A stretch of DNA of 64,000 nucleotides from Dictyoglomus sp. Lineage in GTDB: Bacteria; Dictyoglomota; Dictyoglomia; Dictyoglomales; Dictyoglomaceae. Positions within the stretch are counted from its first letter, which is position 1; every line of letters begins with the position of its first letter. The notes beneath the pieces are model-generated. The model saw only the letters and a program-made list of their open reading frames with translations, was not told the DNA's origin and ran no database searches. Both the position numbers and the translations under genes were made by a program. The DNA is taken from NCBI GenBank assembly GCA_025060475.1, contig JANXBZ010000009.1, positions 31,406-95,405 on the forward strand. Reading direction: 5' to 3'. Below, one piece after another: positions 10,534 through 29,738 of this stretch.

Positions 10534-10858
10534 TTTTCTACCTCCAAAGCTAAAAATCAAAAATTCTTTTAAATACTTATATAAATTATACATCAGAATT
10601 ATTTCTTTTGTTGATATTCTTTTTAATTAATGTTAAATTACTTGTTGTTCCACCTTTTAAAAATCCTCCTGCTGTTTCCTCAGAAATTTTTAATTATTAT
10701 CATAATGTTGGGGATATTTCCTCCCTTGGAAATGAAGGATGCGTAGGCTATTTAGAAGTAAAAAGAGACCTTAAAATACTCAAGAAGCTTTTATTCCTAT
10801 GTTAGGAGCTGGTATTATCTGTCTTGCTCCTGCTACTCCTGATAAATCCTCTCCAGCA

Positions 10859-11086: not shown

Positions 11087-11095
11087 TAAGTCCCC

Positions 11096-12720: not shown

Positions 12721-12729
12721 ATATCTTAT

Positions 12730-13246
12730 CCTTATTCTCGATTCTTCTTATTAATAGTTCTTTCGCAAGAACTCCCATGGTATATGCAGGCTGTTTAACC
12801 ACTGTAAGAAAAGGAAACAAGGGATATATCTTCAGGAATAGAAAGGCCCATTTCTCTAATTGCAAGAATGGCTCCTATGGCCATAAGATTATTTCCTCCA
12901 AAGATTGCGTGGGAGGATATTTCATGTTAAGAAGTTCCTTGGTTAATCTATATCCGTCCTCCTTCAACCCTATCTACAGCAGTGGATATGGATTTACTTC
13001 CAACAATCAAAGGAATATTTTTCATAAAAAGGGATTTTAACGGAGCTTTCTTTTCTGAGGTAGAAGTAAAAATTACTCCATCTCTAGATTTTCAATTGCA
13101 GTGTCTTCAACTCCTCTAGTTGCAGTTTTCTTTAGAGTCAAGCTTCGGGCTATAGAATTTGGAACATAACCTATCCCATTTATAACCCGAGAGACTGTCA
13201 TTATGGAAACACCAGCTTTTCTGGCAACATCTTTAATAGTAACCAT
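12730..13246 (-). pseudogene. LacI-family regulator, heavily decayed
   Basis: Intact [39 protein letters not shown] from ATG 13246, then a stop. Downstream pieces sit in different frames ([32 protein letters not shown]). The whole gene is compressed to about 515 bp versus about 1 kb for an intact LacI. Confidence 0.75.
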
Positions 13247-13333
13247 AATCCCTTTTAAAATTTATTTTTAATGTTAAAGTTAAAGATATAAATAGTGAAG
13301 AATTTCTGATATAAAATATTGAGAAGGTTTAAT

Positions 13334-14230
13334 ATGAAAAAAATACCTGTTATTCTAGATACTGATATAGGGACGGATATAGATGATACTTGGGCTTTAG
13401 TGATGCTCCTTAATTCTCCTGAACTTGATGTAAAACTTATCACCACTGTAAGTGGAGATACCTATTATCGGGCAAAAATTGTAGCAAAATTCTTAGAGAT
13501 TGCGGAAAGAACAGATATTCCCATCGGAATAGGAATGGGAAATCCGAAAGATTCTTTAAATTTTCAAGAACCTTGGATTAAAGATTTTGATTTAGATAGA
13601 TATAAAGGAAAATTATATGATGGAGTAGATGCTATAGTAGATACCATAAAAAACTCTAAAGAACCTGTAACTATAATCTCTATAGGGATAGCTACAAATA
13701 TTGCAAAAGCTTTAGAAATAAGTCCAGATATTGTTAAAAAATCGAGGTTTGTAGGAATGCATGGAAGTATCTATAAAGGATATGGAGGAAAAGAAGGAAG
13801 AGAGCCTGAAGCCAATGTTAGATATGATGTGCCATCAATAAGAAAAGTATTTTCCTCAAATTTCTTAGATAAAATAATAACTCCTCTTGATACCTGTGGA
13901 ATTGTAAAGTTAGAGGGAGAAAGATATGAAAAGATCTTGAACTCGGAAAATCCTCTTTTAAAAGCTCTTATTGAGAATTATAAAATTTGGTCAGAGCTTG
14001 TTCCATGGACAAAGGTAGATTATCAAATAGAGTCATCTACTCTATTTGATACTGTAGCTATTTATTTAGCATATTCTCAAAATTTTCTTGAGATAGAACC
14101 TATTAAATTAAAAATTACAGATGAAGGATTAACTGTACCTGACGAAGATGGAGAAGAGATAGAAGTTGCTATAAGATGGAAGAATTATGAAGCTTTTTTA
14201 AATCATTTGATAGAAAGATTAAAACCATAA
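13334..14230 (+). CDS. Nucleoside hydrolase (IUNH family)
   Basis: N-terminal fingerprint VILDTDIGTDIDDTWAL (DxDxxxDD). ATG 13334 preferred over the TTG at 13319 (GAGAAGG upstream). Confidence 0.85.
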   Translation: MKKIPVILDTDIGTDIDDTWALVMLLNSPELDVKLITTVSGDTYYRAKIVAKFLEIAERTDIPIGIGMGNPKDSLNFQEPWIKDFDLDRYKGKLYDGVDAIVDTIKNSKEPVTIISIGIATNIAKALEISPDIVKKSRFVGMHGSIYKGYGGKEGREPEANVRYDVPSIRKVFSSNFLDKIITPLDTCGIVKLEGERYEKILNSENPLLKALIENYKIWSELVPWTKVDYQIESSTLFDTVAIYLAYSQNFLEIEPIKLKITDEGLTVPDEDGEEIEVAIRWKNYEAFLNHLIERLKP

Positions 14231-14355
14231 ATTTAAAAATTTTTTTACTTTTGTAACTTTTATTATTTTGAAACAATTTAAAAGTATAAGTAAATTGTAT
14301 TAAAATAAGCTTGAAATATTATTTAAGAACTTCTTAAATTTAAGATTGGTAAAGT

Positions 14356-15282
14356 TTAAATAAATCTTCTATATGCAGTCCATTTTATATACTTTTTGCA
14401 AATAATGTATAAAATACAATTATTACAATTTGGTTCTATATCTAAGCAGTATCCATTGGAATATATAAAAAACGCTCCATTATCAACATAAAAAGGGATT
14501 TTTTTATATATAAAAACAAGATTTTCAATTTTACTCCTCATTTTTGAAGCTTCTATTATATATGGTCTTTTACTTTCATAAAATACTTCATCTAATAAAC
14601 CAGTTCTACAAAATATTTTCCCCACATGACCATCTACAATCATAAAACTATCATAAAGATTAATTTGAGATATATTCCAAATATTTTTACATAAAAATAA
14701 AATCCAATTTATATACATTCTGCATGCCTTAGGATCATTTCCTACCCATCCTATACTTAGAATTTCATGCTTTTTTAATTTATCAAAAAGCTTTCGGGGA
14801 CTTTTGTTTATTAATTCATTAATCATAAAATCCTTAAAAGTTATATTATTTTTCTCTAACCATTTTATAAATCCTTCATATGCTTTAAATCTATAAGTAA
14901 AAAGAGAGATAGGCTTAATACCACCTAAGAAGCCCACTCTGTATAACTTCGATCCTCTTTCCCCACATATTTTTTTAAAAACCTTAACTATATCTAATTC
15001 AGATATTACATATGGTTTAAAGAGAAGTAAGTCATTGAATTCTTTATACAATTCAGTAATCAAAGCTCTTACAATATCTATTTGGGCTTGTTGATTTATT
15101 AAAACTCTTAATAAAAGATATCTTAATGTTTTCTCTTTGTCATTTATAATTTTATCATTGTCTAATACTGCTAAATGTTTTTTCCAATAAATCAACCATT
15201 GATTTTCTCCATATTCTTCCAATAAATCAAGAATTTTTAAAATATCCTCATCTGATAATTTTTTTTGTTTTTCCTTTGCCAT
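14356..15282 (-). CDS. Endonuclease III-like HhH-GPD superfamily protein with a C-terminal [4Fe-4S] cluster loop, MTase-linked
   Basis: LLLRVLINQQAQ (Nth-like helix). HhH-like ILSIGWVGNDPKACRMY with Lys at the Nth Schiff-base position. VDGHVGKIFCRTGL (cf. VDTHIFRV..R.G, catalytic Asp). CLDIEPNCNNCILYIIC = C-x6-C-x2-C-x5-C. Overlaps the upstream MTase gene by 35 nt. Confidence 0.7.
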   Translation of the reverse strand: MAKEKQKKLSDEDILKILDLLEEYGENQWLIYWKKHLAVLDNDKIINDKEKTLRYLLLRVLINQQAQIDIVRALITELYKEFNDLLLFKPYVISELDIVKVFKKICGERGSKLYRVGFLGGIKPISLFTYRFKAYEGFIKWLEKNNITFKDFMINELINKSPRKLFDKLKKHEILSIGWVGNDPKACRMYINWILFLCKNIWNISQINLYDSFMIVDGHVGKIFCRTGLLDEVFYESKRPYIIEASKMRSKIENLVFIYKKIPFYVDNGAFFIYSNGYCLDIEPNCNNCILYIICKKYIKWTAYRRFI

Positions 15283-16180
15283 TATTTTTTAATAATTTAT
15301 TAACCTTATTAGAAAGCCAACTTCTTAATTGCTTGGCATCTTCTCTAATTATTATTTCAATCTCATAATTCTTTTCGAATAAACAATTTTTATTAATTCC
15401 AAGCTTTTCTTTTACAATATTTACAAGTTCTTTATCAATATCATATCCCACACTATTTCTACCTAACATTAATGATATCTTGTTGGTTGTTCCCGATCCC
15501 ATAAAGGGATCTAACACAGTTTCTCCAACATATGAAAAAAGTTTAATTAATCTATAAGGGAGTTCTTCTGGAAATGCAGCTATACCTTCTTCAAGCCGAT
15601 TATTTGTAGGTAAAACATTTGTGATATTCCACACATTTAAATACCACTTATTTTCAAGATATTCTTTCACATCAATTTTAGATGCTTCTTTAATAATTTC
15701 TGGAATAGAACTATAATTAAACTTTTTTCCCTTTTGAAATATTAAAATACTTTCCTGAAGATTATCTGGATAAAAATACATGGGATATGGATGTTGTAAG
15801 AGAACTCCACTTCTTCTACTTATTCTGACATAACCCTCTGGTTTGAGCCATATAATTTTATCTCTATAGATAAATCCTTCTTCCAAAAAAATTTGTGTTA
15901 AGTCCGAAACTACAGGATATTTTTCACTATTTATTAAAATATCATCACAAACTAAACATACAATCCTTCCATTAATTAATACTCTCTTTATTTCTTTTAC
16001 GACCTTTTTCATTTTATGTAAATATTCATCATAACTTGAAAAAAGATCAGGATAATCAAAAGGAGCATTATAATAAGGAGGACTAGTTACGACTAAGTGA
16101 ATACTTTCATCCTTTAATTCATACATATTCTCTGCATCACCAAATATTAATAGATGATGAGTTCTATGATTACTAAACAT
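15248..16180 (-). CDS. Beta-class amino DNA methyltransferase (N4-cytosine or N6-adenine)
   Basis: Motif IV VVTSPPYYNAPFDY near the N-terminus and motif I VLDPFMGSGTT near residue 228. The IV-then-I order is beta class (DNA methylase N-4/N-6 family). Confidence 0.85.
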   Translation of the reverse strand: MFSNHRTHHLLIFGDAENMYELKDESIHLVVTSPPYYNAPFDYPDLFSSYDEYLHKMKKVVKEIKRVLINGRIVCLVCDDILINSEKYPVVSDLTQIFLEEGFIYRDKIIWLKPEGYVRISRRSGVLLQHPYPMYFYPDNLQESILIFQKGKKFNYSSIPEIIKEASKIDVKEYLENKWYLNVWNITNVLPTNNRLEEGIAAFPEELPYRLIKLFSYVGETVLDPFMGSGTTNKISLMLGRNSVGYDIDKELVNIVKEKLGINKNCLFEKNYEIEIIIREDAKQLRSWLSNKVNKLLKNNGKGKTKKIIR

Positions 16181-16421
16181 AAATATATTTTCTCCTAAAA
16201 TTTTTATATATCTGATACAATATTATATCACAATGATAACCTTGCATTAATTTATAATATTCTTTCTTAGCTGTAATAAATGTTTATCAAAGGAATATCC
16301 ATATTAGAGAAAATATTTAAAGATAATAAAATATCGCAACATTATAGATGGCACTTGATATGGACATAGGTGCCAATTTTAAGAAATATAGATAAATTCC
16401 TACATAAGTATCACAGGAAAC

Positions 16422-16655
16422 TCAAGAATATGAGGATGAACTAAGAAATTTTCCATTCATGCCAATCCCAAAGCTTGGTCTTGCTAAATTCCATGTATCT
16501 TGCCATCTTTGAGCTTTCTCTAAGAATTCTTCCTTTCCTAAGCAAAATTCCTCCCCATTATCTATCCTTATCTCTATTTTATGTCTGATATTATAAGTTC
16601 TAAACCATAGAATGTGATATAAATCTTGTTCTTTTTTCACATCATAATATTCCAT
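16422..16655 (-). mobile_element. Remnant of an rve-type DDE transposase/integrase (C-terminal fragment)
   Basis: IEIRIDNGEEF resembles the DNGxEF block carrying the third catalytic acid. WQDTWNLARPSFGIGMNGKF resembles the W..YN..RPH..LGG.TP tail. Only 77 codons, no N-terminal part and no inverted repeats seen. Confidence 0.4.
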
Positions 16656-16806
16656 TAAAAAGAGGAAGGGAATTTTTATCCAAGAGATTGTTTAGTATAA
16701 AGCTGATTTCCAGTTATTTCTTTTCAGAATAGTTTTGATAGTATTTTTAGAGAGATAGGAGGAGTTTAATTAAGAAAGGAAAGGTTCAATTACTTAATTA
16801 TATCAA

Positions 16807-16840
16807 GGATTGAGAGGGCAGCCTCAATCCTTTCTATTTT
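16807..16840 (+). terminator. Orphan terminator-like hairpin GGATTGAG-(8 nt)-CTCAATCC followed by TTTCTATTTT
   Basis: 8-bp perfect stem seen directly, with a T-rich tail. No intact + strand gene lies upstream, so it is probably a relic. Confidence 0.35.
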
Positions 16841-16993
16841 CTTTCCCTCTTCTTTCTCTCTTCCTTCTCTATTCCCTCTACTATTACTATACTGGTACCT
16901 ATCTACTAATCAGCTTAGAATAAATTGACAAGTCTTTAATTATTACCTAAACTAAGTTTTAGTATGAAACTTATTCCTGGATAGGAGGAAAGA

Positions 16994-19900
16994 ATGAATC
17001 GCCAAGTAGATTACAGATTTGATCCCGAAAAAGATTTAACTTTTATTATTTACAATTACAACTATGCCTTTCCTTTTTCAAGTTTTCTCCCAGGAATTGC
17101 TGGCATTTTAGGGATACCAATGTGGTGCTTTTACGTGAATAGGGGACAATGTATTGCAAGTTTTGGATTTGAAACTAAAGATGGAGCAATTTTAGAATTT
17201 CATCCTGCTAATAAAGCCTATAGACTTACACCCATATATGGTTTTCGAACCTTTATAAAAATAGAAGATATTTTATATGAGCCCTTTTCGGAAAGATTTA
17301 AAAACTTTGAAATTGAAAATAAGATGAGTATTACCCCATATGATCTAACTATATATGAAATAAATAAAAATTTAAATCTATCTTGCGAAGTAAACTATTT
17401 CACTTTACCCTCTGAACCTGTAGGAGCTTTAATACGTATTTTTAATATCAGAAATCTTAGTAAAGAAAAAATAAAGCTTAAGATCATAGATGGACTTCCT
17501 CAGTTTCTACCCTATGGTTTAACCAATGAAGTTATGAAAAATATGTCTCGAACAATAGAAGCCTGGTATCGAATAGATAATTTAGAAGAAAACCTTCCTT
17601 ATTATAGACTTTCTACATCCTTTCAAGATGTAGCAGAAGTAAAACCTATAGAAGAGGGACATTTTTACTTTGCTTTTTCTGAAGAAAAAAATCTTCTTCC
17701 CGTAGTTATTGATCCTGATATAATATTTTTCCCTTCGAGCGATTTTAGCTATCCTTGGAATTTTTCAAAAAAGGATTTTGAGTTGCCTAAGCCAGTATAT
17801 TATGGAAACCGAACTCCCTCTGCTTTTTCTTATATATCCTTCGACTTAGATCCTTTTGAGGAAAGAGCAATAATTTCCTTTTTTGGAAGGGCCAATTCCC
17901 TTTCTCAATTAAAGGAGCTTGTTAAAAAATATACTAATATCGATTTTGTTAAGGCTAAAGCAGAAGAGAATAAATTAATTATTAGAGAAATTACAGATAA
18001 GGCTTTTGTTTATACTTCTGTGAAAGAATTTAATTCATATGTGAGACAAAGTTTTTTAGATAATGTATTAAGAGGAGGACTCCCCGTTTCCATTGAATAT
18101 GAAAATAAAAAGGATGTTATTTATCTCTTTTCAAGAAAACATGGCGATTTAGAGCGAGATTATAACTTCTTTAGACTTGAAGCAAATTATTTTTCTCAAG
18201 GAAATGCTAATTTTAGAGATATAAATCAAAACAGAAGAAATGATATATACTTTAATCCTAATGTAGGACATTTTAACATTTTATACTTTATGAATTTAAT
18301 TCAGCTTGATGGATATAATCCTCTCCTAATTAAAGGGGTAAAGTATATTTTTGAGAAAGAGAAAGAAAAGCTATCCCAATGGGTGGATGAAGATGTAAAA
18401 AGAGAACTAGAAAAAGTAATATATAAACCTTATATTCCTTATGATGTAATAAAAATCTTAGAAAAAAATAACTTTAAACTCAAAAAAGGAGATATAATTG
18501 AGTTTATATCCTTTCTACTTGTAAACAGTAAGAAAACCGAAGATGCAGAATTTGGAGAAGGATATTGGATAGATCACTGGTTTTACAATCTAGATCTTAT
18601 AGAAAGCTTTGAATCTATATTTCCTGATAAAATGGAGGATTTATTACTAAACATAAAAGAATTTACATACTATGACAACTATGAAAGGGTACTTCCCAGA
18701 GAGGAGAGATATATATTAACGGAAAAAGGAGTAAGACAGTATAGAGCTTTATTTAAAGATGAAGAGAAGTTAAGACTTATAAATTCAAGAAATGTAGAAC
18801 CTTATAAAGTAAGAAAAGATAATGGACGAGGAGAAATATACTATACTAATTTGTTTTCAAAACTTATAACCCTTGTTGCAATAAAATACTCAACTTTAGA
18901 TCCAGATAATATTGGCATTGAAATGGAAGCAGGAAGACCAGGCTGGAATGATGCTCTAAATGGGCTTCCAGGGATATTTGGATCATCAGTAAATGAAACC
19001 TTTGAATTAAAAAGATTAATTCTTATGATTAAAAAATGGGTTGAGAAATATAATTTAGAAGAAAAGGAAATAAACTTGCCTATTGAGGTATATTCTTTAC
19101 TAAATTCTCTTATGGAGCTTACAATTAAAAATCTTGATGAAAAGATTTCTAATTTTGAATTTTGGGACAAAATCTCAAAGGAAAGGGAGATTTATAGGGA
19201 AAAAATAAGATTTGGAATAGAAGGAAAAGAAATTTCAATAAAAATATCAGATCTTCTAAAGTACCTAAATCTATTCTTAGAAAAAATTGAAAGGGGACTA
19301 AAACAAGCATTCAATCCACAAAAGGGAATTTACTATTCTTATTTTTATTATGAACTTATTGATTATGAAATAATAGAAAAAGATGGAAAACTTGTTATAA
19401 AACCTAAGAAATTTGAAAGAAAAAATCTACCTTCTTTTCTTGAGTCCCAAGTACATTTCCTAAAATCAGAAGAAGATATACAAAAGAAGATTGAGATTAT
19501 AGAAAATGTGAAAAAAAGTGACATATACGATAAAAAATTAAAAATGTATAAGCTGAACGAACCCCTTGAGAATACCTCTTTTGAGATTGGAAGAGTGAGA
19601 GCTTTTCTTCCAGGATGGCTTGAAAACGAAAGCATATTTCTTCATATGGAATATAAATATCTTCTTGAAATGTTAAAAACAGATCCAGGATATTTCTTTT
19701 ATGATATGATGACCTGTCTTGTTCCCTTTATGGATCCTAAAATATATAAAAGAAGCATCTTTGAAAATGTATCCTTTATAGTAAGTAGTGCAAATCCTGA
19801 TCCTAGCATTCATGGGGCTGGATTTTCTGCAAGACTTTCAGGAAGCACAGCAGAACTCTATAATATTCTTCTTCTAATTTCCCTTGGGAAAAATCCCTTT

Positions 19901-20257
19901 TATTTAGATGAAAATAAAAAATTAATCTTTAAACTTGAACCTAGTTTGCCTTCATTCTTATTTACTGAGAAAGATGAAGAAGTTGAGTACTATTCCAATG
20001 GAAAAGTATTAAAGATATTTATTCCCCAAAATTCTTATGTGATAAGGTTTTTAGACGATATTCTTATTTATTACATAAATCCAATAAGATCTTTTACCTT
20101 TGGCGATATTGCAAGAGGAAAAATTAAAGAATATATTTTATATCCAGATTTAGATAAAGATGAGAAAATAATAATTAAAGGAGATAAAGTTCCAGAACCT
20201 TATTCAAAGGAGATAAGAGAAGGAAAGTATAAAAAGATCGAAGTGATTTTAGAATAA
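16994..20257 (+). CDS. Large (1087 aa) GH94-clan-like (alpha/alpha)6 glycoside phosphorylase/hydrolase, GH149/GH161-like, uncharacterised
   Basis: EAGRPGWNDALNGLPG parallels the catalytic GDGDWNDGMNAVG of the GH94 enzyme at 44347-46704. PGWLENESIFLHMEY parallels PGVRENGGLYTHAG, and ARLSGSTAELY parallels WYTGSAAWYF. GGAGG RBS upstream of the ATG. Confidence 0.55.
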   Translation: MNRQVDYRFDPEKDLTFIIYNYNYAFPFSSFLPGIAGILGIPMWCFYVNRGQCIASFGFETKDGAILEFHPANKAYRLTPIYGFRTFIKIEDILYEPFSERFKNFEIENKMSITPYDLTIYEINKNLNLSCEVNYFTLPSEPVGALIRIFNIRNLSKEKIKLKIIDGLPQFLPYGLTNEVMKNMSRTIEAWYRIDNLEENLPYYRLSTSFQDVAEVKPIEEGHFYFAFSEEKNLLPVVIDPDIIFFPSSDFSYPWNFSKKDFELPKPVYYGNRTPSAFSYISFDLDPFEERAIISFFGRANSLSQLKELVKKYTNIDFVKAKAEENKLIIREITDKAFVYTSVKEFNSYVRQSFLDNVLRGGLPVSIEYENKKDVIYLFSRKHGDLERDYNFFRLEANYFSQGNANFRDINQNRRNDIYFNPNVGHFNILYFMNLIQLDGYNPLLIKGVKYIFEKEKEKLSQWVDEDVKRELEKVIYKPYIPYDVIKILEKNNFKLKKGDIIEFISFLLVNSKKTEDAEFGEGYWIDHWFYNLDLIESFESIFPDKMEDLLLNIKEFTYYDNYERVLPREERYILTEKGVRQYRALFKDEEKLRLINSRNVEPYKVRKDNGRGEIYYTNLFSKLITLVAIKYSTLDPDNIGIEMEAGRPGWNDALNGLPGIFGSSVNETFELKRLILMIKKWVEKYNLEEKEINLPIEVYSLLNSLMELTIKNLDEKISNFEFWDKISKEREIYREKIRFGIEGKEISIKISDLLKYLNLFLEKIERGLKQAFNPQKGIYYSYFYYELIDYEIIEKDGKLVIKPKKFERKNLPSFLESQVHFLKSEEDIQKKIEIIENVKKSDIYDKKLKMYKLNEPLENTSFEIGRVRAFLPGWLENESIFLHMEYKYLLEMLKTDPGYFFYDMMTCLVPFMDPKIYKRSIFENVSFIVSSANPDPSIHGAGFSARLSGSTAELYNILLLISLGKNPFYLDENKKLIFKLEPSLPSFLFTEKDEEVEYYSNGKVLKIFIPQNSYVIRFLDDILIYYINPIRSFTFGDIARGKIKEYILYPDLDKDEKIIIKGDKVPEPYSKEIREGKYKKIEVILE

Positions 20258-20281
20258 AGAATATTATAAACAAAAAAGGAA

Positions 20282-23200
20282 CTATTCGCCTTTTTCAATT
20301 ATGCTTATTTCTTCCTCTGTTAGATCGTAAAGCTTGTAAACTAGGTGATCAATTTGTTGCTCAAAATAGGAGGTATCTGCTTGACAGCCTTCCTCTTTCT
20401 TAATTTTTATAATCTTGTCCACTAAAGATTCAATTTGGTTAATGATATTGAGATTTTGAGGAGTAATTGGAGGAATAGGAAGTTGCTCTAAGAAAGCTTT
20501 CTTATAACGATAGCCTTCTTCTCCTAATCCTCCTCCTGAATAAAACTTTTTGAAAATATAGGCTACGGGATTTGAATTTAAAATACCACAGAGATATTTA
20601 AGGTTGTTACCTGTCATAATGAAACCAGTAGCCTCAATATAAAATTTTTCTTTATCATAATAAAACTGAGGTTCTCTAACAATCTCTTGCCACACTATTT
20701 TTTCTTTTTCAAATTCTGGATAATAAGCTATATTATCTTGCGTCTCAAACCATTTATTGTTAGTTTTCTTTCTATGGCCTGGCCTTCCATCTTGTAAAAG
20801 TCTATCTCCAAAACCTTGTAGATAATCTTTTAGGGAAGGATAATTATTAATATTTAAGCTTAAAGCAGGAAATGTACTAATTATCCAAAGTCCCTTCCAT
20901 TCATAGCAATATCTTCCAATATCTCTTCCTCTTAAAACAGGCTTTATAATATCTTCAGTCCTTTTTCTTTCCTCAATAGTTTTACAATTTTTCAATATCT
21001 TGTCTCTTGTTTGAGTATCTATTATAAAAGCTTCATTAAAGCCAGTCTTAATTCCAAAGTATATTTTTACATCCCATTCTTTTAATGGTTTTCCTAATTT
21101 TTCAATTTTCTCTTTTAATCTTAATATGCTGTAATCTGCAAGAATAAAGTTCTTTTCAGAAAATGAATTTTGTTCTATTTTATTCCAGTTTGATTTTATG
21201 TAGTCTATTACTTGAGTATGATTTGGTATAATGGATGGAACATTTACAAAGTTAACTTGATTATTACAAGGATGTTCTTTTTTAAATATTACTATGCAGG
21301 TATCTACTGTTTGTTCAAAAACAGAAAATCCACCAAAATCTACTATTTTTAATATTTGAGTATTATCTTTCAAGAATTTTCTTAAGCCTTCTCCATATTT
21401 AGCTCTCATCCATTTATTACTTGAGATAAAACTAAGGATACCTGATTTTCTGAGTAGATCAAATCCTTTCTCATAAAAATAAACATAAAGATCCGCTGTA
21501 GAAGAGTAAACCTTATATCCTTCTTTCTGCAAAAAAGGCTTTATATCTCTTATCTTTTCTTGTCTTACGTATGGCGGATTTCCTATTACAATATCAAAAC
21601 CATCGGTTACTCCTAACATCCATTCTGGATCAAACCAATCTCCTTGAGCTGTTTGATCAAAAATATCAAAATTTGCTATTTTCTCTACATTTTCAGCGTT
21701 CCAACCTTCTTTTAGCAAGATCTCTTTTATTTTATATCTAATTTCCTGAGCTTCCTTTTGAAGTCTTTTTTTCTCATCTCTTGTCTTTATATTAAAATGC
21801 TTCTTATACAAATCTTTTAACTGTTCTTTTAAATCCTTTAGTATATGGTCTCCCATATTTACTTGATTGGTTTTTTCCAATCCTATGAGGGTATTTGCAC
21901 ATACAAATCTAGTTTCAAGATGAGGGAGAGGTTTTATTCCATAATTTTCTTTTTTTTCATCGATCTTTTGATCAATAAGTAGGGAGAGGAAAAATCTCAA
22001 TTTACAAATCTGGACAGCAATAGGTTGTATATCTACACCATATATTGAGTTTTCTATCAAGTACAATTTTCTTGCGTAATCTGGATAATTTATACTCTCA
22101 TCAAAGTTATCATTTACTTCTTTTAGGTATTTTTCCCTTTCTTCTTTATCTTTTATCTTAAGTATTTTTTCTATCTCATTAAGAGCTTTATTATACTGGA
22201 GTTCATACCAAAGTTTATTATCAGAGTCTATTCTATTGAGTATATATACAAGTTTGTGTACAACTCCCATTGGAAAAGCACCAGAGCCCACTGCAGGATC
22301 TATAACTTTTATTGAGTCTATAGCTTTTAAAAGAGCAAATTTTTCCTCCTCTTTTAAATCTATATCTTCTTTATAGGATAAGATTTCTCTTAGTCTTTCC
22401 TCTTTTATTTCTGTTTTTGTCTTAAAGTATTCTATTAAGGCTTCTTCTACCATAAAGTCTACAATCTCTTTTGGAGTATAGTAGGAGCCTGTAGCTTTTC
22501 TTGCTGTAGTTTGTGTTTCTGGATTGTAAGAGGCAAGAAGATTTTCAAAAATGTGTCCTAATAGCTCCGGATCAAGGGATACTTCTACATCTATAGGCGT
22601 ATTTTCATCGGCAGTAAAATTATAATCATTAAGTATATTTATCAAGCCCCTTACTTTTACTATTCTTTTTTCTCCGTAAAAGTCTGATAAATCTTCAGTT
22701 CTTTCAGGAGAAAAGAATAGAAAATCTGGGACTTTTGCTCTTTTATCTTCTCTCCTTGAGAATCCATCTATATAATTTGAATCGTCATCAAGACACTCAA
22801 AAAGTCCTCCGTTTATAAAGGGTATCTTCTCAAAGATTTTTATAAACTCCCTTTCAGATATATTTAAATATTTTTCATACCTAAAAAGATTTTTTACTCC
22901 AAAATTTTTTCTATTTTCAGGAAAGCCTAAATCTTTAGCAAAATCCCTAAATTTTCTATCTTGATTTAGAGTTGCAAAAAAAAGATTTTGAAGAATTACA
23001 TTATAATAATAATCTTTAATTCCAAAATCTTTTACTATATTTTTAAGCTCATTAGGTTCAAAGATTACTTCTGGAATAAGCTCCTTTTCTTTAAGAAACC
23101 ATACGAATATTATCCTAGTAAGGAGTCTTATAAGATTCTCCTCAATTTTACCTCCTGGGAAATAAGCATGTTTTAAAGACCATGCGTACCAATTTTGAAT

Positions 23201-23728
23201 TTCCGTATAGAATTCTTTTGTAATAGGTTGAGTGCTAAAAGCGTTTATTACGTTATCCAGGGTATCGAAGGTCACATCATAGAGAGCTTTTTTAAAGGTA
23301 CGGTAAGGTTTGTTTTTTGTTACAAAATATGTATGCCTTTTGTAATAACTGAAGTCTCTTTTTACCCCAGAAAAGATCGAGTAAATTAAAGAAAAACGAA
23401 AATTTTGCTTTTCATCAAAAAATACAAATATACCAGCTTGAATAGCATCAAGTTTTAATAATTTTTTAGCAAATTCATATTGTTTCTTCTTACTACTTCT
23501 TTCACTAAGCTCTCCTGTTGTTTTTATGGCATAAACCTTTATTATATTTTTATCACTAAGGCTTTTTTCTCCTATTTCGTATACTTCCTCAAAAATTTCT
23601 TCTGTATAGGGAATATTTCTATCATAAACATTGAAGTTTGGGTCTTTTCCGACAAGATATGATTTTAAATTCTCTTTTGAAAAATTTTTTATTAGGTTAT
23701 CTATTAAACACTCAAGCTTGCTAGACAT
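20282..23728 (-). CDS. Eco57I/TaqI-family gamma-class N6-adenine DNA methyltransferase with a C-terminal target-recognition region (1148 aa)
   Basis: Motif I VIDPAVGSGAFPMG precedes motif IV VIGNPPYVRQ. Long N-terminal (~400 aa) and C-terminal (~400 aa) extensions. 4 nt downstream of the helicase gene. Confidence 0.85.
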   Translation of the reverse strand: MSSKLECLIDNLIKNFSKENLKSYLVGKDPNFNVYDRNIPYTEEIFEEVYEIGEKSLSDKNIIKVYAIKTTGELSERSSKKKQYEFAKKLLKLDAIQAGIFVFFDEKQNFRFSLIYSIFSGVKRDFSYYKRHTYFVTKNKPYRTFKKALYDVTFDTLDNVINAFSTQPITKEFYTEIQNWYAWSLKHAYFPGGKIEENLIRLLTRIIFVWFLKEKELIPEVIFEPNELKNIVKDFGIKDYYYNVILQNLFFATLNQDRKFRDFAKDLGFPENRKNFGVKNLFRYEKYLNISEREFIKIFEKIPFINGGLFECLDDDSNYIDGFSRREDKRAKVPDFLFFSPERTEDLSDFYGEKRIVKVRGLINILNDYNFTADENTPIDVEVSLDPELLGHIFENLLASYNPETQTTARKATGSYYTPKEIVDFMVEEALIEYFKTKTEIKEERLREILSYKEDIDLKEEEKFALLKAIDSIKVIDPAVGSGAFPMGVVHKLVYILNRIDSDNKLWYELQYNKALNEIEKILKIKDKEEREKYLKEVNDNFDESINYPDYARKLYLIENSIYGVDIQPIAVQICKLRFFLSLLIDQKIDEKKENYGIKPLPHLETRFVCANTLIGLEKTNQVNMGDHILKDLKEQLKDLYKKHFNIKTRDEKKRLQKEAQEIRYKIKEILLKEGWNAENVEKIANFDIFDQTAQGDWFDPEWMLGVTDGFDIVIGNPPYVRQEKIRDIKPFLQKEGYKVYSSTADLYVYFYEKGFDLLRKSGILSFISSNKWMRAKYGEGLRKFLKDNTQILKIVDFGGFSVFEQTVDTCIVIFKKEHPCNNQVNFVNVPSIIPNHTQVIDYIKSNWNKIEQNSFSEKNFILADYSILRLKEKIEKLGKPLKEWDVKIYFGIKTGFNEAFIIDTQTRDKILKNCKTIEERKRTEDIIKPVLRGRDIGRYCYEWKGLWIISTFPALSLNINNYPSLKDYLQGFGDRLLQDGRPGHRKKTNNKWFETQDNIAYYPEFEKEKIVWQEIVREPQFYYDKEKFYIEATGFIMTGNNLKYLCGILNSNPVAYIFKKFYSGGGLGEEGYRYKKAFLEQLPIPPITPQNLNIINQIESLVDKIIKIKKEEGCQADTSYFEQQIDHLVYKLYDLTEEEISIIEKGE

Positions 23729-23732
23729 TTTC

Positions 23733-26700
23733 TTAAGAATTTTGTATTTTTCTATTTTCTATAGCTATTATAACTTCCTCTGCATGATTCTTCAAATCTA
23801 TCTTCTCCAAAAAGTCCTCTCCTATAATATCTTTTAATTCTTCTAATCTTTTTATTTTTTCTTCAATGCTCATTTTTTCCATTTCTACAATCTGAGATAA
23901 AGTAAAGTCTGACAAAGTACCGAAACTCCTAATATCCTCAAGTAAATTTGAGATAAACTTTTCATAAGGCCTTATGAGATTATTTTCTTTTCCTCCCCAT
24001 TCCTGTAAAAGGAAATTAAGTAGGTTAAAGGCTTTATCTCTTAAGCTTTTCCCTTTAGGGATGTAAAGCCTCTTGTAAGCTGTTTTATCTAAAGTTAATT
24101 GGTAATTTCTCCAGAAATTTTCACTCAATGGTAAACTTTTTTCATCTTTATCTGCTATGATTTTTTCGTATACTTCTTCGAAAGTAGAGGAGATTGGTTG
24201 CTTCTCAAGATAATCCTTATAACCTACAAATAGGTCTTTGTTTTTCTTTATAAATACCAATAACTCGTCCTTATCTCCCTTTTTAGCTACTTTAACCCTT
24301 ACTGGCATATTTTTTATCTCTTCTATAATATCAGGATAAGCTTTTTCTATATTTTCATATTGTTTCCTGATTGTGGTAAAGAAACTCTCCTCTTCATCGT
24401 CCATATAAGTATTTAGCCTTCTATAAAGTTCCGCAGGCTGTGGTTCTTCGTCAGGATCAAAGATTTTTGCATCTTCTCCCAGTACATGGTGAATCATAAA
24501 CATCTTTGTCTGAGCAATTTCTTTTGATTTTACTATATCTGCCCCTTTTTCTGTGGGGAAAAAGTTTAGTATATATATCTCATCATATACTTTTTTTCCG
24601 ATCCTATTTATCCTTCCCACTCTTTGGATTACCCTTACAGGATTCCAGGGTATGTCATAGTTTATTACAACTCCAGCTCTGTTTAAATTAAATCCTTCAG
24701 AAAGTTTATCAGTAGTTAACAATATGTAATACCTATCTTCTTGATTTTTGTACTGGGCATCAAAATTCTTGTATATATCCTCGATTGTTCTTCTGCTCAG
24801 ATCACCATAAGCAGTAAGAAGAATGTCTTGAAAATGCTTTTCTAGAATATTTTTTATATATATGGCAGTATCTAGATATTCCGTAAATATAACCACCTTT
24901 CTGTTTTTAAGAAGGTAAAATCTTATTTCTTCTATAAGTTTTTCTGACTTTGGATCTTTTTCTAACAATTTAAGATTTTTAATCTTTTCAATTAATCCAT
25001 TGAATAAACTAAGATCGTTTTCTATATCAGCTATAAATTTAGTTTTTTCTTTAAATTTATCTAAATCATATACTTTATAATATTTACTGTTTATATTTTT
25101 ATTTTTTAAATCTTCCTCATATTTTCTTAATTCTTCGAGAATAGCATCTGGATCTGCAGTTATAAGATCATCCATTAGTTTTCTATCTAAAATGAATTTA
25201 TTTGTCTTTCTTACAAAATCAAGAGCAGTTTCATGCACATCTCTAAATCTTTCAATACTTTCTTTAAATGCTCCAAAACTACTTTCAAATCTTTTCACAA
25301 GTAGCCTTCTCATGAAATCATATAAATTTCTTTGATAAGTGTATAAAAATTGTTCCTCGCGGGAAATTTTACCTTCATATATTTCCTCTAATAAAGATTC
25401 TTGTTCAGTTTCCTCATAGCGAGCAGGAAAATAAATTGCACCTTTAAATATTCCTCCTTCTTCCAAAGGAGCAAAGGTTTTTATTACCTCATCGTAAAAT
25501 TCTGACTCTTCTTTTGTGAGTTCAAAAAAACATTCTATGGGATCTTTTACCTCAGGAAGATCTATTTTTTCCCCATAGTATTTTAAATCAAGCCTATTTC
25601 TTCTTATAACTACAGGTTCTAGAGTGGCTCTGATTTCTTCAGCAAGTTTCTTTGTAAGAAATTTTACTTTACTTATCTCTATTTTGTCTTCTCTAAAAAT
25701 TTCTTGATAATATCTTTCTGCTCTTTTTTTTCTTTTTCTATCCCTTGAATTCCAATAATTTTTTATATAAGCAAGCCTATAAAAATATATTTGATAAAAA
25801 TTAAATTTTCCTTCCAGATCTTCATCCAATACTATGGAAGATCTTCTAGGAACTGTAAAAAGTTTTAGAAGAGAAAATAGATCAGAAGGTCTATTATTAA
25901 AAGGAGTAGCAGTTAACAGTATTACTGTTTTTCCCCTACATATCTCCTTTAGGTACTGATAACTTTGAGTATCTTCATTTCTGAAACGATGAGCTTCATC
26001 TACTATTATTACCTGTATATCTTCTTTATCTTTTACAAATTCAAGAACTTCTTCTAATTTTCCTAAGGATCTTACCTCCCAGTCATATAATTTAAAATCT
26101 TCAAGATATTTTCTCCAACCTGAAGTTTTATTCTCATCTCCTACAAGATGGGGAGGACATATGACAATACCTCTTTTCCCTAAGGACTTTGCCACAAGAC
26201 AAGCGATTACAGTTTTTCCGAGCCCAACTACGTCAGCTATTATTGTTCCTCCATGAGCCTCACAATTTGCAAGAGCTTGAGCTACAGCTTCCAATTGATA
26301 GTTATAAGGTTTGTAGCCCTTTTCTATCATTAAATCTTCTAGTTCTCTCTTTATTATTTTTCCTTTATGAAGCTCAAGGTAAGTTTTTAATAAATATACA
26401 TAAGCGGCAAAGGGAGAAATTTCTCTAAGCAGTCCTTCCTTTTTTATAACATGTATTACTCTGTTTATATCTTCTTCTGTTAAATCTATAGCTTTATTCC
26501 AAAGTTCATCGAAGTATCTTTCTGCCTCCTCAAATCCATAATCCTTTACTTCTACATTAAATTCATCCTGAGATTCAATGCCTGCTTTAGTAAGATTACT
26601 ACTTCCTGTGATAAAAAGATTAGGAATTATAGTTTTTACTGAATCATCCATTTTGAAAAGGTAAAGTTTAGCATGATTAGGTTCTAAGGTTTTTTTAAGT

Positions 26701-27086
26701 ATTAGTTTCTCTTCCTTTAAGAGTTTTATATAAAAATTAGCTTGCTCGTAAACCTCAATATTATCTAAATCTTTAGAATTGAAAGCTTTTCTTAAAGATG
26801 TAAATAATTTTTCCTTAACTTTATTGATATTAAATATATATTCCTTAATAGCATTTTCATAAATTCCCCAAATTCCCTCATCTATATCTAATCCTACAAG
26901 AATCTTAATATGTCCTTTTCTCAATCTTCCTTCTTCATCTAATTTTCTTAAAGTCTCATATATTTCCTTTACCCCTGAAAAATAAAAAAAGCCAACAAGA
27001 AATTTTAATTCTTCACTCTTATATATGAGCTCTTTTAGTCTCTTCTTTAAAGATTTTTCTTCGGAATTAGTTATAAATACACTCAT
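23733..27086 (-). CDS. PLD-family nuclease domain fused to an SNF2/SF2 helicase (1117 aa)
   Basis: N-terminal HAKLYLF...ITGSSNLT (HxK...GSxN PLD/Nuc motif). Helicase motif I ADVVGLGKTVIA, motif II VIIVDEAHRFRN, motif III LLTATPFNN, motif VI VIQRVGRINRIG. Confidence 0.85.
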   Translation of the reverse strand: MSVFITNSEEKSLKKRLKELIYKSEELKFLVGFFYFSGVKEIYETLRKLDEEGRLRKGHIKILVGLDIDEGIWGIYENAIKEYIFNINKVKEKLFTSLRKAFNSKDLDNIEVYEQANFYIKLLKEEKLILKKTLEPNHAKLYLFKMDDSVKTIIPNLFITGSSNLTKAGIESQDEFNVEVKDYGFEEAERYFDELWNKAIDLTEEDINRVIHVIKKEGLLREISPFAAYVYLLKTYLELHKGKIIKRELEDLMIEKGYKPYNYQLEAVAQALANCEAHGGTIIADVVGLGKTVIACLVAKSLGKRGIVICPPHLVGDENKTSGWRKYLEDFKLYDWEVRSLGKLEEVLEFVKDKEDIQVIIVDEAHRFRNEDTQSYQYLKEICRGKTVILLTATPFNNRPSDLFSLLKLFTVPRRSSIVLDEDLEGKFNFYQIYFYRLAYIKNYWNSRDRKRKKRAERYYQEIFREDKIEISKVKFLTKKLAEEIRATLEPVVIRRNRLDLKYYGEKIDLPEVKDPIECFFELTKEESEFYDEVIKTFAPLEEGGIFKGAIYFPARYEETEQESLLEEIYEGKISREEQFLYTYQRNLYDFMRRLLVKRFESSFGAFKESIERFRDVHETALDFVRKTNKFILDRKLMDDLITADPDAILEELRKYEEDLKNKNINSKYYKVYDLDKFKEKTKFIADIENDLSLFNGLIEKIKNLKLLEKDPKSEKLIEEIRFYLLKNRKVVIFTEYLDTAIYIKNILEKHFQDILLTAYGDLSRRTIEDIYKNFDAQYKNQEDRYYILLTTDKLSEGFNLNRAGVVINYDIPWNPVRVIQRVGRINRIGKKVYDEIYILNFFPTEKGADIVKSKEIAQTKMFMIHHVLGEDAKIFDPDEEPQPAELYRRLNTYMDDEEESFFTTIRKQYENIEKAYPDIIEEIKNMPVRVKVAKKGDKDELLVFIKKNKDLFVGYKDYLEKQPISSTFEEVYEKIIADKDEKSLPLSENFWRNYQLTLDKTAYKRLYIPKGKSLRDKAFNLLNFLLQEWGGKENNLIRPYEKFISNLLEDIRSFGTLSDFTLSQIVEMEKMSIEEKIKRLEELKDIIGEDFLEKIDLKNHAEEVIIAIENRKIQNS

Positions 27087-27208
27087 AATTTTATAAAAAT
27101 TTTACAATTTCTTGGAACAATCTTCAACTATAAAGAGTAGTGTTTTAACATACATTTTTGTGTTATAATTTTTGGAAAAAGTGTTACCATGTAAAGGAGG
27201 TATTTAAA

Positions 27209-27886
27209 ATGCATATACCTGATGGATATTTGGGACCTCAGACCTACGGAAGCTTGTTTGTAGTAATGACTCCTTTTTGGATAAAAGCTTACAATTATAT
27301 CAAGAAAAATCTTAGAATAAAACAAATTCCACTTATAGCTCTTGGTGCCGCCTTTTCTTTTGTAATTATGATGTTTAATATACCTATACCTGGAGGAACC
27401 ACAGGGCATGCAGTAGGGGGCGTATTACTCTCTATTCTTTTAGGTCCATGGACGACTTCTATTATAATATCCATTGTTTTAATAATTCAGGCACTAATAT
27501 TTGGCGATGGTGGAATAACAGCTATTGCTGCAAATTGCTTCAACTTAGGGATAATTATGCCTTTTGCAGGATATTTTGTTTATAATATTTTAAAGGGTAA
27601 AGAACCATTAAACTCTAAAAAAGGATTAATTTCTGCGGGAATAGGAGCGTATGTAGGATTGAATATGGCAGCTTTAGCAACAGCTTTTATGCTTGGAATT
27701 CAGCCATATATTTCAAAGGCAAGTGATGGAAAGCCTCTTTATTGCCCCTATCCCTTACATGTTACAATACCTGCTATGATGATAGAACATCTTTTTCTTT
27801 TTGGTTTTATAGAAGCTATCATTACTGTTCTTGTTTTAAGTTATCTTATAAAAACAAATATGATAAAGGAGTGGGAAAATGTATAA
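27209..27886 (+). CDS. cbiM: ECF-type Co/Ni transporter substrate-capture component CbiM
   Basis: Begins MHIPDGYL, the hallmark CbiM/NikM N-terminus. AAAGGAGG RBS 8 nt upstream. The track start at 27158 is a spurious extension. Confidence 0.9.
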   Translation: MHIPDGYLGPQTYGSLFVVMTPFWIKAYNYIKKNLRIKQIPLIALGAAFSFVIMMFNIPIPGGTTGHAVGGVLLSILLGPWTTSIIISIVLIIQALIFGDGGITAIAANCFNLGIIMPFAGYFVYNILKGKEPLNSKKGLISAGIGAYVGLNMAALATAFMLGIQPYISKASDGKPLYCPYPLHVTIPAMMIEHLFLFGFIEAIITVLVLSYLIKTNMIKEWENV

Positions 27887-28202
27887 ATTATGGAAAGGCA
27901 TAATAATATTAGTGATATTATCTCCTTTGGGAATAATTCTTCCATATCTATTTAATGCTGGTGCTGCATGGGGAGAATGGAGTTCGGAGGAGATTAAAGA
28001 ATTTATTGGCTATGTACCTGAAGGTCTTGAAAAATTAGAAAAATTAGGAAAACCATTGTTTCCAGATTATAATTTAAAAATTTGGGAAGAGGCGGGTTTA
28101 TTGGAACAATCCCTAGGATATATAATTACTGGACTAATAGGTGTAGGTATAGTAGTATTAGTAACGTACTTATTGGGAAAGATTGCAGTAAAGAATAAAT
28201 AA
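27879..28202 (+). CDS. PDGLE-domain membrane protein (CbiN-like accessory component)
   Basis: Two TM helices flank a loop with YVPEGLEKLEK (PDGLE-type motif). It occupies the cbiN position and overlaps cbiM by 8 nt. Confidence 0.65.
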   Translation: MYKLWKGIIILVILSPLGIILPYLFNAGAAWGEWSSEEIKEFIGYVPEGLEKLEKLGKPLFPDYNLKIWEEAGLLEQSLGYIITGLIGVGIVVLVTYLLGKIAVKNK

Positions 28203-28203
28203 A

Positions 28204-28998
28204 ATGGGTAACTTTATAGACAAGACCTTAGATGAGTTTAATAAAGTATTAAAGTCTTTTCTTCTTTTTGAAGAAAAAAAAGAATCCTTTTTATGTAGTA
28301 TAAATGAAAGGATAAAAATTGTCATTCTTCTTTTTATTCTTATAATTATTAGTCTTTTGCAAAGGATTGAATTAATCATAGCTTTTTATTTATTAAGTAT
28401 AATTATAGGATATTTAGGAAAAATTGGGGTAAGAAACTTATTAAGAACCACATGGATATTTATTCCTATCTTTACACTTATTATTGCCCTTCCCACAGCT
28501 TTTATTAATCCTCTGAATTTTTCCTTTGGTTTTACAAGGGAAGGGCTATTAAATGCTTTAAGGTTTGTACTAAGAGTTGCCACATCTATTTCTTATATAA
28601 GACTTTTAATTCTTTCTACTTCATGGATAAAAATCTTATCAGGATTAAGAGGGATTGGTATTCCATCTCTTATCATAACAATAATTGCTATAACCTACAG
28701 ATATATATTTCTTCTCTTAAAAATAGGAGAGGATTTATATTTTGCTAAAAAAAGTAGAACAATAAAAATAAATCTAAAAAGGGAGCATAGTTTTACGGCA
28801 AATAGCATTGGCATTATGGCAATAAAAAGTCATGAACTTTCTAAGGAAGTTTATCAAGGTATGCTTTCTCGGGGTATAACAAAGGATTTTTCCTTTTCCT
28901 TTGAAAGTAAAATTTCCATGAGAGATATTGTTATTTTAATTTCTGTAATATTTATTATATTGATTCTTTTTTTGATTTTCGAAGGAATAAAAATATGA
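28204..28998 (+). CDS. cbiQ: ECF transporter transmembrane (T) component CbiQ
   Basis: Polytopic 264-aa protein with an Ala-Arg-Gly-like coupling region (SGLRGIGIP / MLSRGI). Operon position between cbiN-like and cbiO. Confidence 0.75.
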   Translation: MGNFIDKTLDEFNKVLKSFLLFEEKKESFLCSINERIKIVILLFILIIISLLQRIELIIAFYLLSIIIGYLGKIGVRNLLRTTWIFIPIFTLIIALPTAFINPLNFSFGFTREGLLNALRFVLRVATSISYIRLLILSTSWIKILSGLRGIGIPSLIITIIAITYRYIFLLLKIGEDLYFAKKSRTIKINLKREHSFTANSIGIMAIKSHELSKEVYQGMLSRGITKDFSFSFESKISMRDIVILISVIFIILILFLIFEGIKI

Positions 28999-29738
28999 AA
29001 GAAGAATTAATTTTTAAATTGGAAAATGTTAGTTATTATTATCTTGATCATAAAGTTGCCCTTTCTTCTATAAGTCTAGAAATTTATAAGGGTGAAAAAA
29101 TATGTATACTTGGTCCCAATGGTTCTGGAAAGTCTACTCTATTAAAAATTCTTGATGGACTTCTATACCCTAAAGAAGGAAATTTTTTTGCTTTTTCTCA
29201 AAGAATAACTGAAAAAACTTTTAATAATCATGATTTCAATAAATTTTTCAGAAAAAATGTAGTACTTCTGTTCCAGAATGTAGATGCTCAACTTTTTTCT
29301 CCCAGAGTAGAAGATGAAATAGCTCTTAGCTTAATTCAACTCGGATATAAAAAAGAGGAAATAGAAGAAAAGATAAGAAAAATATCTGAATTCTTTAGAA
29401 TAACTCATCTTTTAGATAGAGCTCCCTTTCAACTTAGCGAGGGAGAAAAGAAAAAAGTAGCTCTTGCGTCTTTGCTTGTGATAGAACCTTCAGTAATTCT
29501 TCTTGATGAACCTACTAATGAACTTGATCCAAGAAGTAAGAGAGAACTTATTAAATACGTAAAAGAATTGCAGTCTGAGAACAAAACAACAATAATAGCT
29601 ACTCACGATTTAAATATAATATCTGAATTGGCAGAAAAAGTTTATATTCTTGGAGAAGATAAAAGAATAAAAAGATATGGAAAAGTAGAGGAAATATTGT
29701 GGGACAAGAAATTTTTAGAGGAAGTTAATTTGATATAA
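28995..29738 (+). CDS. cbiO: ECF transporter ATPase CbiO
   Basis: Walker A GPNGSGKST, signature LSEGEKKK, Walker B ILLDEPTNELD. 4-nt overlap with cbiQ. Confidence 0.9.
   Translation: MKEELIFKLENVSYYYLDHKVALSSISLEIYKGEKICILGPNGSGKSTLLKILDGLLYPKEGNFFAFSQRITEKTFNNHDFNKFFRKNVVLLFQNVDAQLFSPRVEDEIALSLIQLGYKKEEIEEKIRKISEFFRITHLLDRAPFQLSEGEKKKVALASLLVIEPSVILLDEPTNELDPRSKRELIKYVKELQSENKTTIIATHDLNIISELAEKVYILGEDKRIKRYGKVEEILWDKKFLEEVNLI

Follow-up and report, generated by a model that had tools for sequence, protein, structure and literature searches.

A two-gene module of a PLD-SNF2 motor nuclease and a gamma-class adenine methylase in Dictyoglomus as a probable ATP-dependent restriction-modification system

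The window analysed here, a 64-kb stretch of a Dictyoglomus genome, contains two adjacent genes that encode a PLD-type (HKD) nuclease fused to an SNF2-type ATPase (P0001) and a gamma-class N6-adenine DNA methyltransferase (P0002). The domains of the two proteins, together with their analogy to characterised enzymes, suggest that the pair is probably a self-sufficient two-protein, ATP-dependent restriction-modification (R-M) system, functionally a split Type ISP or a Type III-like one. It is a self-contained mobile module whose genes are obligately linked and which has no further components, and it is a widespread R-M-like pair that is unnamed in the literature we found. Both frames are uninterrupted, and the junction reads TAA-gaaa-ATG, with P0002 lying downstream of P0001 after a spacer of 4 nt. 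The initial annotation's list of domains and its account of two closely spaced genes are borne out by the open reading frames (ORFs), by this spacer, by the presence of every quoted motif in the translations and by the Pfam domains; as read from the sequence, the combination lies far beyond chance.

Domain content of the two proteins

P0001 carries a single HKD motif, spread over HAKLYLF (residues 138-144) and GSSNLT (161-166), and the ATPase motifs GLGKT (288-292), DEAH (363-366), TATP (392-395) and QRVGRINR (821-828). Besides the nuclease domain listed in Table 1, Pfam assigns SNF2-rel_dom (58.3 bits) and ResIII at about residues 340-536 and Helicase_C at 714-830 (63.2 bits). The same search found no modified-base reader in the protein and nothing in its C-terminal 240 residues, the region in which the conservation profile drops to 0.27-0.6. 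Across 30 homologues with identity down to 27%, the residues H138, K140, G161, S162, S163 and N164 of the nuclease are invariant, as are G288-K291, D363, E364, H366, T394, P395, Q821, R822, G824 and R825 of the ATPase. Among solved structures, the Sulfolobus SNF2/Rad54 ATPase (1z63) is the nearest in sequence. In PADLOC, P0001 has a full-length-type match to the 'HKD+Snf2' model, partial matches to DrmD, and a match of 74 bits to the PLD_Helicase (MtsD-type) model that covers part of the protein only. Nucleases with one HKD motif per chain require a dimer for the active site, as in Nuc, BfiI and SauUSI. Because each chain of P0001 has one such motif, its active site would be assembled from two chains.

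In P0002, motif I (DPAVGSGAF, residues 477-485) precedes motif IV (NPPY, 717-720, within NPPYV at 717-721), which in turn precedes a C-terminal recognition domain, and this is the gamma-class order. Pfam assigns Eco57I at 560-804 (152.3 bits, above the cut-off), N6_Mtase, and TaqI_C at 929-1085 (52.1 bits), and it assigns no family to residues 1-400. Among 91 homologues with identity down to 38%, NPPY is fully invariant and nearly all positions of motif I (DPAxGSGAF) are invariant, with P478 in the 90% class. Since the catalytic residues of both P0001 and P0002 stay invariant in alignments whose lowest identities are 27-45%, both proteins look active and under purifying selection.

The full-length AlphaFold (AF2) model of P0002 has a pLDDT score (predicted local distance difference test) of 83.5 and a predicted template-modelling (pTM) score of 0.77. 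Foldseek places CamA and M.BseCI first among its structural matches (E of about 1e-29 to 1e-22), followed by PglX/BrxX, MmeI, BpuSI and DrdV, and the sequence itself matches the solved structures of PglX/BrxX, CamA and M.BseCI. The likeness to CamA and M.BseCI covers the methylase and the TaqI-like recognition domain. It is in and around this recognition domain that P0002 is least conserved, with values of 0.26-0.48 at residues 826-875, 951-1000 and 1026-1075 and of 0.7-0.85 in the flanks, and our alignment of homologues (A1) shows a mosaic of sequence types in the recognition-domain blocks of otherwise similar proteins. A recognition domain that varies within an otherwise conserved methylase is what one would expect of a specificity subunit under diversifying pressure, and we read the sequence variation as consistent with that role.

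The first 165 residues of P0002 form a family-specific domain with an alpha-alpha-beta3-alpha-beta3-alpha topology in a domain-only model (19 sequences; pLDDT 91.6, pTM 0.87). Conservation in this domain falls on basic or polar residues (R77, K80, Q83, R111, R131 and T133). Across 19-91 homologues no acidic D...(D/E)xK triad is kept in residues 1-165, E76 being the sole conserved acidic residue, and the strand of the would-be (D/E)xK reads VYAIK, with A, T, S, G or M at the acidic position and a lysine that varies. A search of the PDB with the domain model returned nothing at E <= 0.001, and its matches to TSEN15/34, Cas4 and SPARDA nuclease chains are at chance level (TM <= 0.36, E >= 0.0026; top TM 0.36). 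A conventional Type IIG PD-(D/E)xK nuclease at this position, which the initial annotation had named as the finding that would make the helicase an unrelated neighbour, is ruled out by the missing acidic triad and by the lack of a match to a solved nuclease. The model would be compatible with a remote, inactivated endonuclease-like fold, which the domain may represent. A 'recognition-type' character, which had been proposed for this extension, receives no support. With no nuclease in the methylase itself, the PLD domain on the motor is left as the sole nuclease of the module.

We also used a profile of this domain to search 1.84 billion representative sequences, and we found it in 528 clusters at 50% identity, so that by this domain alone the module is common, occurring in many phyla that include thermophiles and candidate phyla. 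Among the 150 best profile matches, the domain is always at the extreme N-terminus (residues of about 2-170) of proteins of at most 1265 residues.

Gene linkage, distribution and the search for further components

To describe the linkage of the two genes, we anchored one survey on each of them. In the helicase-anchored survey of species-representative genomes, 19 of the 27 loci have enough downstream DNA to be judged, and a methylase homologue is adjacent in 18 of these (directly downstream in 17 and upstream in one, L022). The remaining locus is an Aquificaceae contig (L026, positions 1-1061) that holds a broken C-terminal remnant of the helicase in two ORFs of 194 and 111 residues; a methylase is missing from the 10 kb that follow, and the sequence identifies the locus as a decayed copy of the module. 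The methylase-anchored survey of metagenomes, seeded from alignment A1, comprises 80 loci, 15 of which are too short upstream to be judged; of the 65 informative loci, 59 have the helicase upstream on the same strand and 3 have it downstream, 62 in all. The helicase is thus adjacent to the methylase in about 95% of the informative cases.

In about 100 loci, which represent many phyla, no third conserved gene was revealed next to the pair when the neighbouring ORFs were clustered, and the flanking genes are unrelated in every helicase-anchored locus. Extra small genes lie between or beside the helicase and the methylase in five loci (L017:9929-10303, L027:7941-9675, L025:8997-9419, L028:5700-6731 and L022:9123-9545), and they encode PDDEXK_3 (twice), Fic/DOC, a RhuM-family protein, a winged helix-turn-helix protein and an AbiEii fragment. 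Genes of these kinds are the usual passengers of restriction operons. The hosts of the pair include Dictyoglomus, Thermodesulfovibrio, Thermodesulfobacterium, Aquificae, Acidobacteria, Leptospiraceae, Ignavibacteria, Bacteroidales and Patescibacteria, among others. Close to the source genome the distribution is patchy, with the pair present in none of 4 same-genus genomes and in 2 of 10 same-family genomes, a pattern that resembles that of mobile defence genes.

The source genome (1.72 Mb, 99.6% complete) was searched for parts of the larger systems that combine similar proteins. DrmB (DUF1998/MZB, PF09369) has no match in the whole genome, although control genomes do match the model, and PglZ was not found in the genome. 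The DUF3780 model (PF12635) has no match either, but it is equally silent in all 14 control genomes. The DrmA model matches P0001 weakly (62 bits) and has one strong match elsewhere, which is HmaA. A single gene in the genome encodes a DUF499 ATPase (390 bits); this is HmaC, which stands beside its own methylase, HmaB, on a contig other than that of the pair, and no DUF499 ATPase is found in the 64-kb window or in about 100 related loci. Going by their sequences, HmaA, HmaB and HmaC are one separate Hma or Type-1 BR (BREX-related) system that was split by the assembly and that has its own helicase-nuclease and methylase. Components of DISARM, BREX or MANTIS located elsewhere in the genome were therefore considered and rejected, as the searches for MZB, DrmA, DUF499, DUF3780 and PglZ returned only this Hma system.

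The curated NCBIfam models lead in the same direction. P0001 reaches 165.8 bits with the DrmD model (NF038317; cut-off 610) and 124 bits with that of a PLD anti-phage protein (NF042964; cut-off 1100), and P0002 reaches 95.7 bits with the PglX model (NF033452; cut-off 500). Because DrmB/DUF1998, PglZ and a detectable DUF3780 are lacking and the sole DUF499 protein belongs to Hma, the pair is not a DISARM, BREX or MANTIS system. The initial annotation was right that the window has no DrmA or DrmB gene, and the absence of DUF1998/MZB extends to the whole genome; its phrase 'minimal DISARM-like' does not hold as a statement of membership, given the DrmD score and the missing DrmA/DrmB core.

Proposed mechanism, related systems and rival explanations

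Several known systems share parts with the pair. Similar to the Type ISP enzymes LlaGI and LlaBIII, the pair combines a nuclease, a superfamily 2 (SF2) ATPase/translocase, a gamma-class N6-adenine methylase and a C-terminal recognition domain, and for both one would expect asymmetric recognition sites and ATP-dependent communication along the DNA. Type ISP enzymes, however, are one chain, whereas here a stop codon and the spacer separate two ORFs; their nuclease is of the Mrr type, PD-(Q/E)xK, instead of PLDc_2/HKD; and the motor of the pair is SNF2-type, while P0002 adds the family-specific N-terminal domain and an MmeI/PglX-like helical spacer. The best functional analogy remains the one already suggested, a split, ATP-dependent counterpart of Type ISP with a PLD nuclease. 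In Type III systems (Mod and Res, for example EcoP15I) there are likewise two genes, with a methylase that reads the site and a helicase-nuclease that cuts in an ATP-dependent manner, but Mod is beta-class with an internal recognition domain, the Res nuclease is a C-terminal PD-(D/E)xK rather than an N-terminal PLD domain, and the gene order is the reverse.

The N-terminal HKD/PLD nuclease fused to an SF2/SNF2 ATPase is also the layout of the MANTIS (Gao_RL, Type-2 BR) effector. MANTIS differs from the pair in needing an AAA+ ATPase of the DUF499 family and a small protein whose number is given as DUF3780 in one paper and as DUF3870 in another, neither of which was detected with the pair, and in its methylase MtsC, which is alpha-class (DUF1156 type) where P0002 is gamma-class (Eco57I type). 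The MtsD-type models, PLD_Helicase in PADLOC and NF042964 in NCBIfam, match P0001 only in part and with low scores. SauUSI, a Type IV enzyme with ATP-dependent cleavage, shares the layout of P0001, with a PLD nuclease at the N-terminus and an SF2 helicase-like ATPase behind it, but it carries an SRA-type reader and targets methylated cytosine, whereas P0001 lacks a reader and is accompanied by a methylase. Class 1 DISARM (DrmD, DrmMI) and ARMADA II (ArmA-D) both have an SNF2 helicase adjoining an Eco57I/PglX-like adenine methylase; DISARM also has a PLD nuclease, but as the separate DrmC rather than fused to the SNF2 protein, and the YprA-family DrmA/DrmB (DUF1998) core is absent from the genome of the pair.

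Comparative-genomics papers describe fusions of an HKD nuclease to an SF2 helicase among the components of restriction systems, and Type-2 BR is defined as a DUF499 ATPase with a methylase, an HKD-Swi2/Snf2 helicase and DUF3780 (Rakesh and Krishnan, Nucleic Acids Research 2026). In ARMADA II and DISARM I, the SNF2 helicase and PglX-like methylase stand beside a YprA helicase. In MANTIS (2026 preprint), MtsC directs both hemimethylation and restriction, and inverted site pairs are restricted best. Our literature search returned these related systems, but no name or experiment for the bare pair of a PLD-SNF2 protein and a gamma-class methylase. To the earlier statement that such an architecture is not mechanistically characterised, it can be added that this kind of effector has since been studied in MANTIS, though not for the present pair.

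By analogy with Type III, Type ISP, SauUSI and MANTIS, we propose the following mechanism. P0002 would bind a short, probably asymmetric site through its TaqI/CamA-like C-terminal domain and N6-methylate one adenine within it, so that host DNA is marked as self. At an unmodified site P0002 would instead serve as the reader for cleavage and recruit or license P0001. A physical interaction of the two proteins would plausibly involve the N-terminal domain of P0002 and the C-terminal region of P0001, the former, at the position of the Type IIG nuclease, being the likeliest contact point for the motor. The SNF2 motor of P0001 would then move along double-stranded DNA, spending ATP, and two HKD halves would form the PLD active site and cut, whether in a dimer that exists throughout, like those of SauUSI and MtsD, or when two motors meet. 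The mechanism has precedent in these two PLD-SF2 motor nucleases, each of which works as a dimer whose chains share a single active site (for MtsD, described as SauUSI-like, see the MANTIS preprint). We place much lower confidence in the dependence on site orientation and in the details of the contact than in the overall reading of the pair as an R-M system.

Several observations weigh against that overall reading. For two distant methylase homologues (35% identity), whose flanks each measure at least 3.5 kb, no helicase was found up to 5.5 kb to either side. The closest metagenomic homologue of the methylase (L046, positions 1-5862; 62% identity) has no helicase in the 5.8 kb upstream and only 315 nt of downstream sequence; its gene order may be reversed, or the methylase may be a solo one. 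No helicase-methylase fusion occurs among the 150 best matches of the N-terminal domain, which leaves the pairing without Rosetta-stone support. More distant relatives of the helicase pair with other methylases: the helicase has six plasmid matches, all of at most 41% identity, and the best of them, a 41%-identical PLD-SNF2 homologue on pMESIL02 of Allomeiothermus silvanus (L045, NC_014214.1, 6932-10309), lies near a different 787-residue 'DNA methyltransferase' and a Dam-type methylase rather than an Eco57I-type partner. This context tells little about the pair itself. DrmC, the PLD protein of DISARM, is reportedly dispensable for DISARM defence. Finally, two proteins may not suffice, since in MANTIS MtsC cannot load on DNA without the AAA+ ATPase MtsA and purified MtsD has so far shown no cleavage in vitro (MANTIS preprint).

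Among the rival explanations, a non-classical form of defence seems rather unlikely to us. It could take the form of a BREX-like block of replication, and BREX does provide a PglX-like methylase that works without demonstrated cleavage, to which the failure of MtsD to cut in vitro may be added; or P0001 could be a modification-dependent nuclease of the SauUSI kind, with which it shares its layout, and the methylase could serve another purpose. The invariant HKD residues argue for catalysis, P0001 has no recognisable reader of modified bases, and a Type IV enzyme obligately tied to a methylase would attack its own host. We hold it very unlikely that P0002 is an autonomous Type IIG/IIL enzyme of the MmeI, BpuSI or Eco57I type with the helicase as an unrelated or accessory neighbour. 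The resemblance is real, as P0002 shares with MmeI, BpuSI, DrdV and Eco57I the helical spacer, the gamma-class domain, the C-terminal recognition domain and the overall length, its full-length model aligns with the first three, its top PADLOC models are 'REase_MTase_IIG' (470 bits), and some homologues are named 'type II restriction endonuclease' or 'type IIS restriction endonuclease' in the databases. The PADLOC label, however, reflects the methylase half only, because the match is carried by residues 550-1146 and the N-terminus has no nuclease; where Type IIG/IIL enzymes have a PD-(D/E)xK nuclease, P0002 has a non-catalytic domain whose well-scored model matches no solved nuclease, and an obligate motor-nuclease partner is adjacent in nearly all informative loci. 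In REBASE, PglX-type entries once listed as Type IIG have already been transferred to the methylases on the same grounds (EcoSal review, PMC12707154).

That the pair is a fragment or satellite of class 1 DISARM, ARMADA, BREX type 3 or MANTIS/BR type 2, and needs parts encoded elsewhere, we judge to be at least as improbable as an autonomous Type IIG enzyme, if not slightly more so. An SNF2 protein with a PglX/Eco57I-like methylase is indeed common to DISARM I (DrmD and DrmMI), ARMADA II (ArmA and ArmB) and BREX-3 (BrxHII and PglXI), the best PADLOC and NCBIfam matches of P0001 are to DrmD, and the genome does have one DUF499 ATPase. This ATPase and the only strong DrmA-model match are, however, parts of Hma, the nearly complete genome has neither MZB/DUF1998 nor PglZ and no match to the DUF3780 model (silent in the controls as well), all of the curated cut-offs were failed, so that P0002 is not a PglX equivalog, and neither a conserved third gene nor the alpha-class methylase of MANTIS accompanies the pair. 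The least probable explanation is a housekeeping or regulatory role in epigenetic control or in DNA repair and remodelling. SNF2 ATPases such as RapA remodel protein-DNA complexes and orphan gamma-class methylases such as CamA regulate, but such a role fits poorly with a patchy distribution in genus and family, unrelated flanks everywhere, a variable recognition domain, a nuclease fused to the motor, and the toxin-antitoxin, abortive infection (Abi) and RhuM-type genes embedded in related operons.

Within the reading of the pair as an R-M system, there is also a more specific possibility, which we put forward tentatively and consider doubtful. The pair may constitute a distinct, unnamed class of ATP-dependent R-M system, in which an MmeI/PglX-like methylase that has lost, or never possessed, a nuclease loads a half-site PLD-SNF2 motor by means of its family-specific N-terminal domain, whose fold would be novel, and in which cutting would take place only when two loaded motors join their HKD halves. 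If this were true, two-site (head-to-head) licensing would be enforced structurally, and the class would form an evolutionary bridge between Type IIG/IIL, Type ISP/III and the helicase-methylase module of DISARM, ARMADA and BREX-3. If the mechanism is an ordinary one, the main gain is a correction of annotation. We saw no system-level model for the pair in PADLOC, and we expect that other annotation pipelines likewise count a non-cutting single-protein restriction enzyme and overlook the real nuclease; to judge from its N-terminal domain, P0002 probably does not cut. A thermostable system of two proteins would moreover be the simplest available model for the transfer of an unmodified site from a methylase to an SNF2-type motor nuclease, a step that is unresolved in DISARM, ARMADA, BREX type 3 and MANTIS, and it is a possible source of new specificities for the annotation of methylomes.

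The locus and its neighbours

The features of the pair, its neighbours and the separate Hma genes are collected in Table 1. Promoter-like matches near the pair are no commoner than in shuffled sequence, and the same is true of the terminator scan.

Table 1. Features of the P0001-P0002 pair, its neighbours in the window and the separate Hma genes
Feature	Position	Strand	Evidence or remark
P0001 (gene 1), 1117 aa	23733..27086	-	ORF listing and translation; PLD (HKD) nuclease fused to SNF2-type ATPase/translocase; predicted restriction subunit
PLD/HKD nuclease domain of P0001, aa 28-196	26499..27005	-	Pfam PLDc_2, 37.6 bits (cut-off 27)
Single HKD motif of P0001 (H138-x-K140 ... G161-S-S-N164)	26595-26675	-	Translation
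SNF2/SF2 ATPase core of P0001, aa ~262-870	24477..26303	-	Pfam; motif I GLGKT, II DEAH, III TATP, VI QRxGR
C-terminal region of P0001, aa ~880-1117	23736..24449	-	No Pfam match; lower conservation; candidate partner-binding region
P0002 (gene 2), 1148 aa	20282..23728	-	ORF listing and translation; gamma-class N6-adenine DNA methyltransferase; predicted modification and specificity subunit
N-terminal domain of P0002, aa 1-165	23234..23728	-	Domain model; family-specific; possibly a docking or coupling domain
Helical spacer, aa ~166-400 ('NGGLFECLD' block), and methyltransferase catalytic domain, aa ~405-830, of P0002	21239..23233	-	Homologue alignment; structure matches
TaqI_C-type target-recognition domain of P0002, aa ~860-1090	20459..21151	-	Pfam TaqI_C; conservation profile; variable patches
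Promoter-like site TTGAAG-17-TAAAAT	27099..27127	-	Consensus scan; 12 nt upstream of the P0001 start codon; weak evidence
GH149-like glucan phosphorylase	16994-20257	+	Converges on the methylase end of the pair; unrelated neighbour
cbiM-PDGLE-cbiQ-cbiO transporter	27158-29738	+	Diverges from the helicase start; unrelated neighbour
HmaA, SNF2/DEAD helicase with C-terminal NOV_C/DUF3883	L003:9430-12792		652 bits; end of contig C1
HmaC (DUF499 ATPase) and HmaB (methylase cut by the contig end)	L032:10070-14663		End of contig C5

The cbiM operon is found in four same-genus genomes at a DNA identity of 68-74%. To the left of cbiM these genomes show no synteny with the window, and no clean insertion boundary can be drawn from a comparison with empty sites. 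Two of them (L043 and L044) have no counterpart of positions 7729-27157 upstream of their cbiM, and this whole stretch varies between species. It contains decayed sugar genes, a pair of a small methylase and an EndoIII-like gene, the GH149-like gene and the P0001-P0002 module. An ORF of 93 residues at 27128-27409 on the reverse strand overlaps the start of cbiM in antisense, matches no PADLOC or NCBIfam family and is probably a chance frame.

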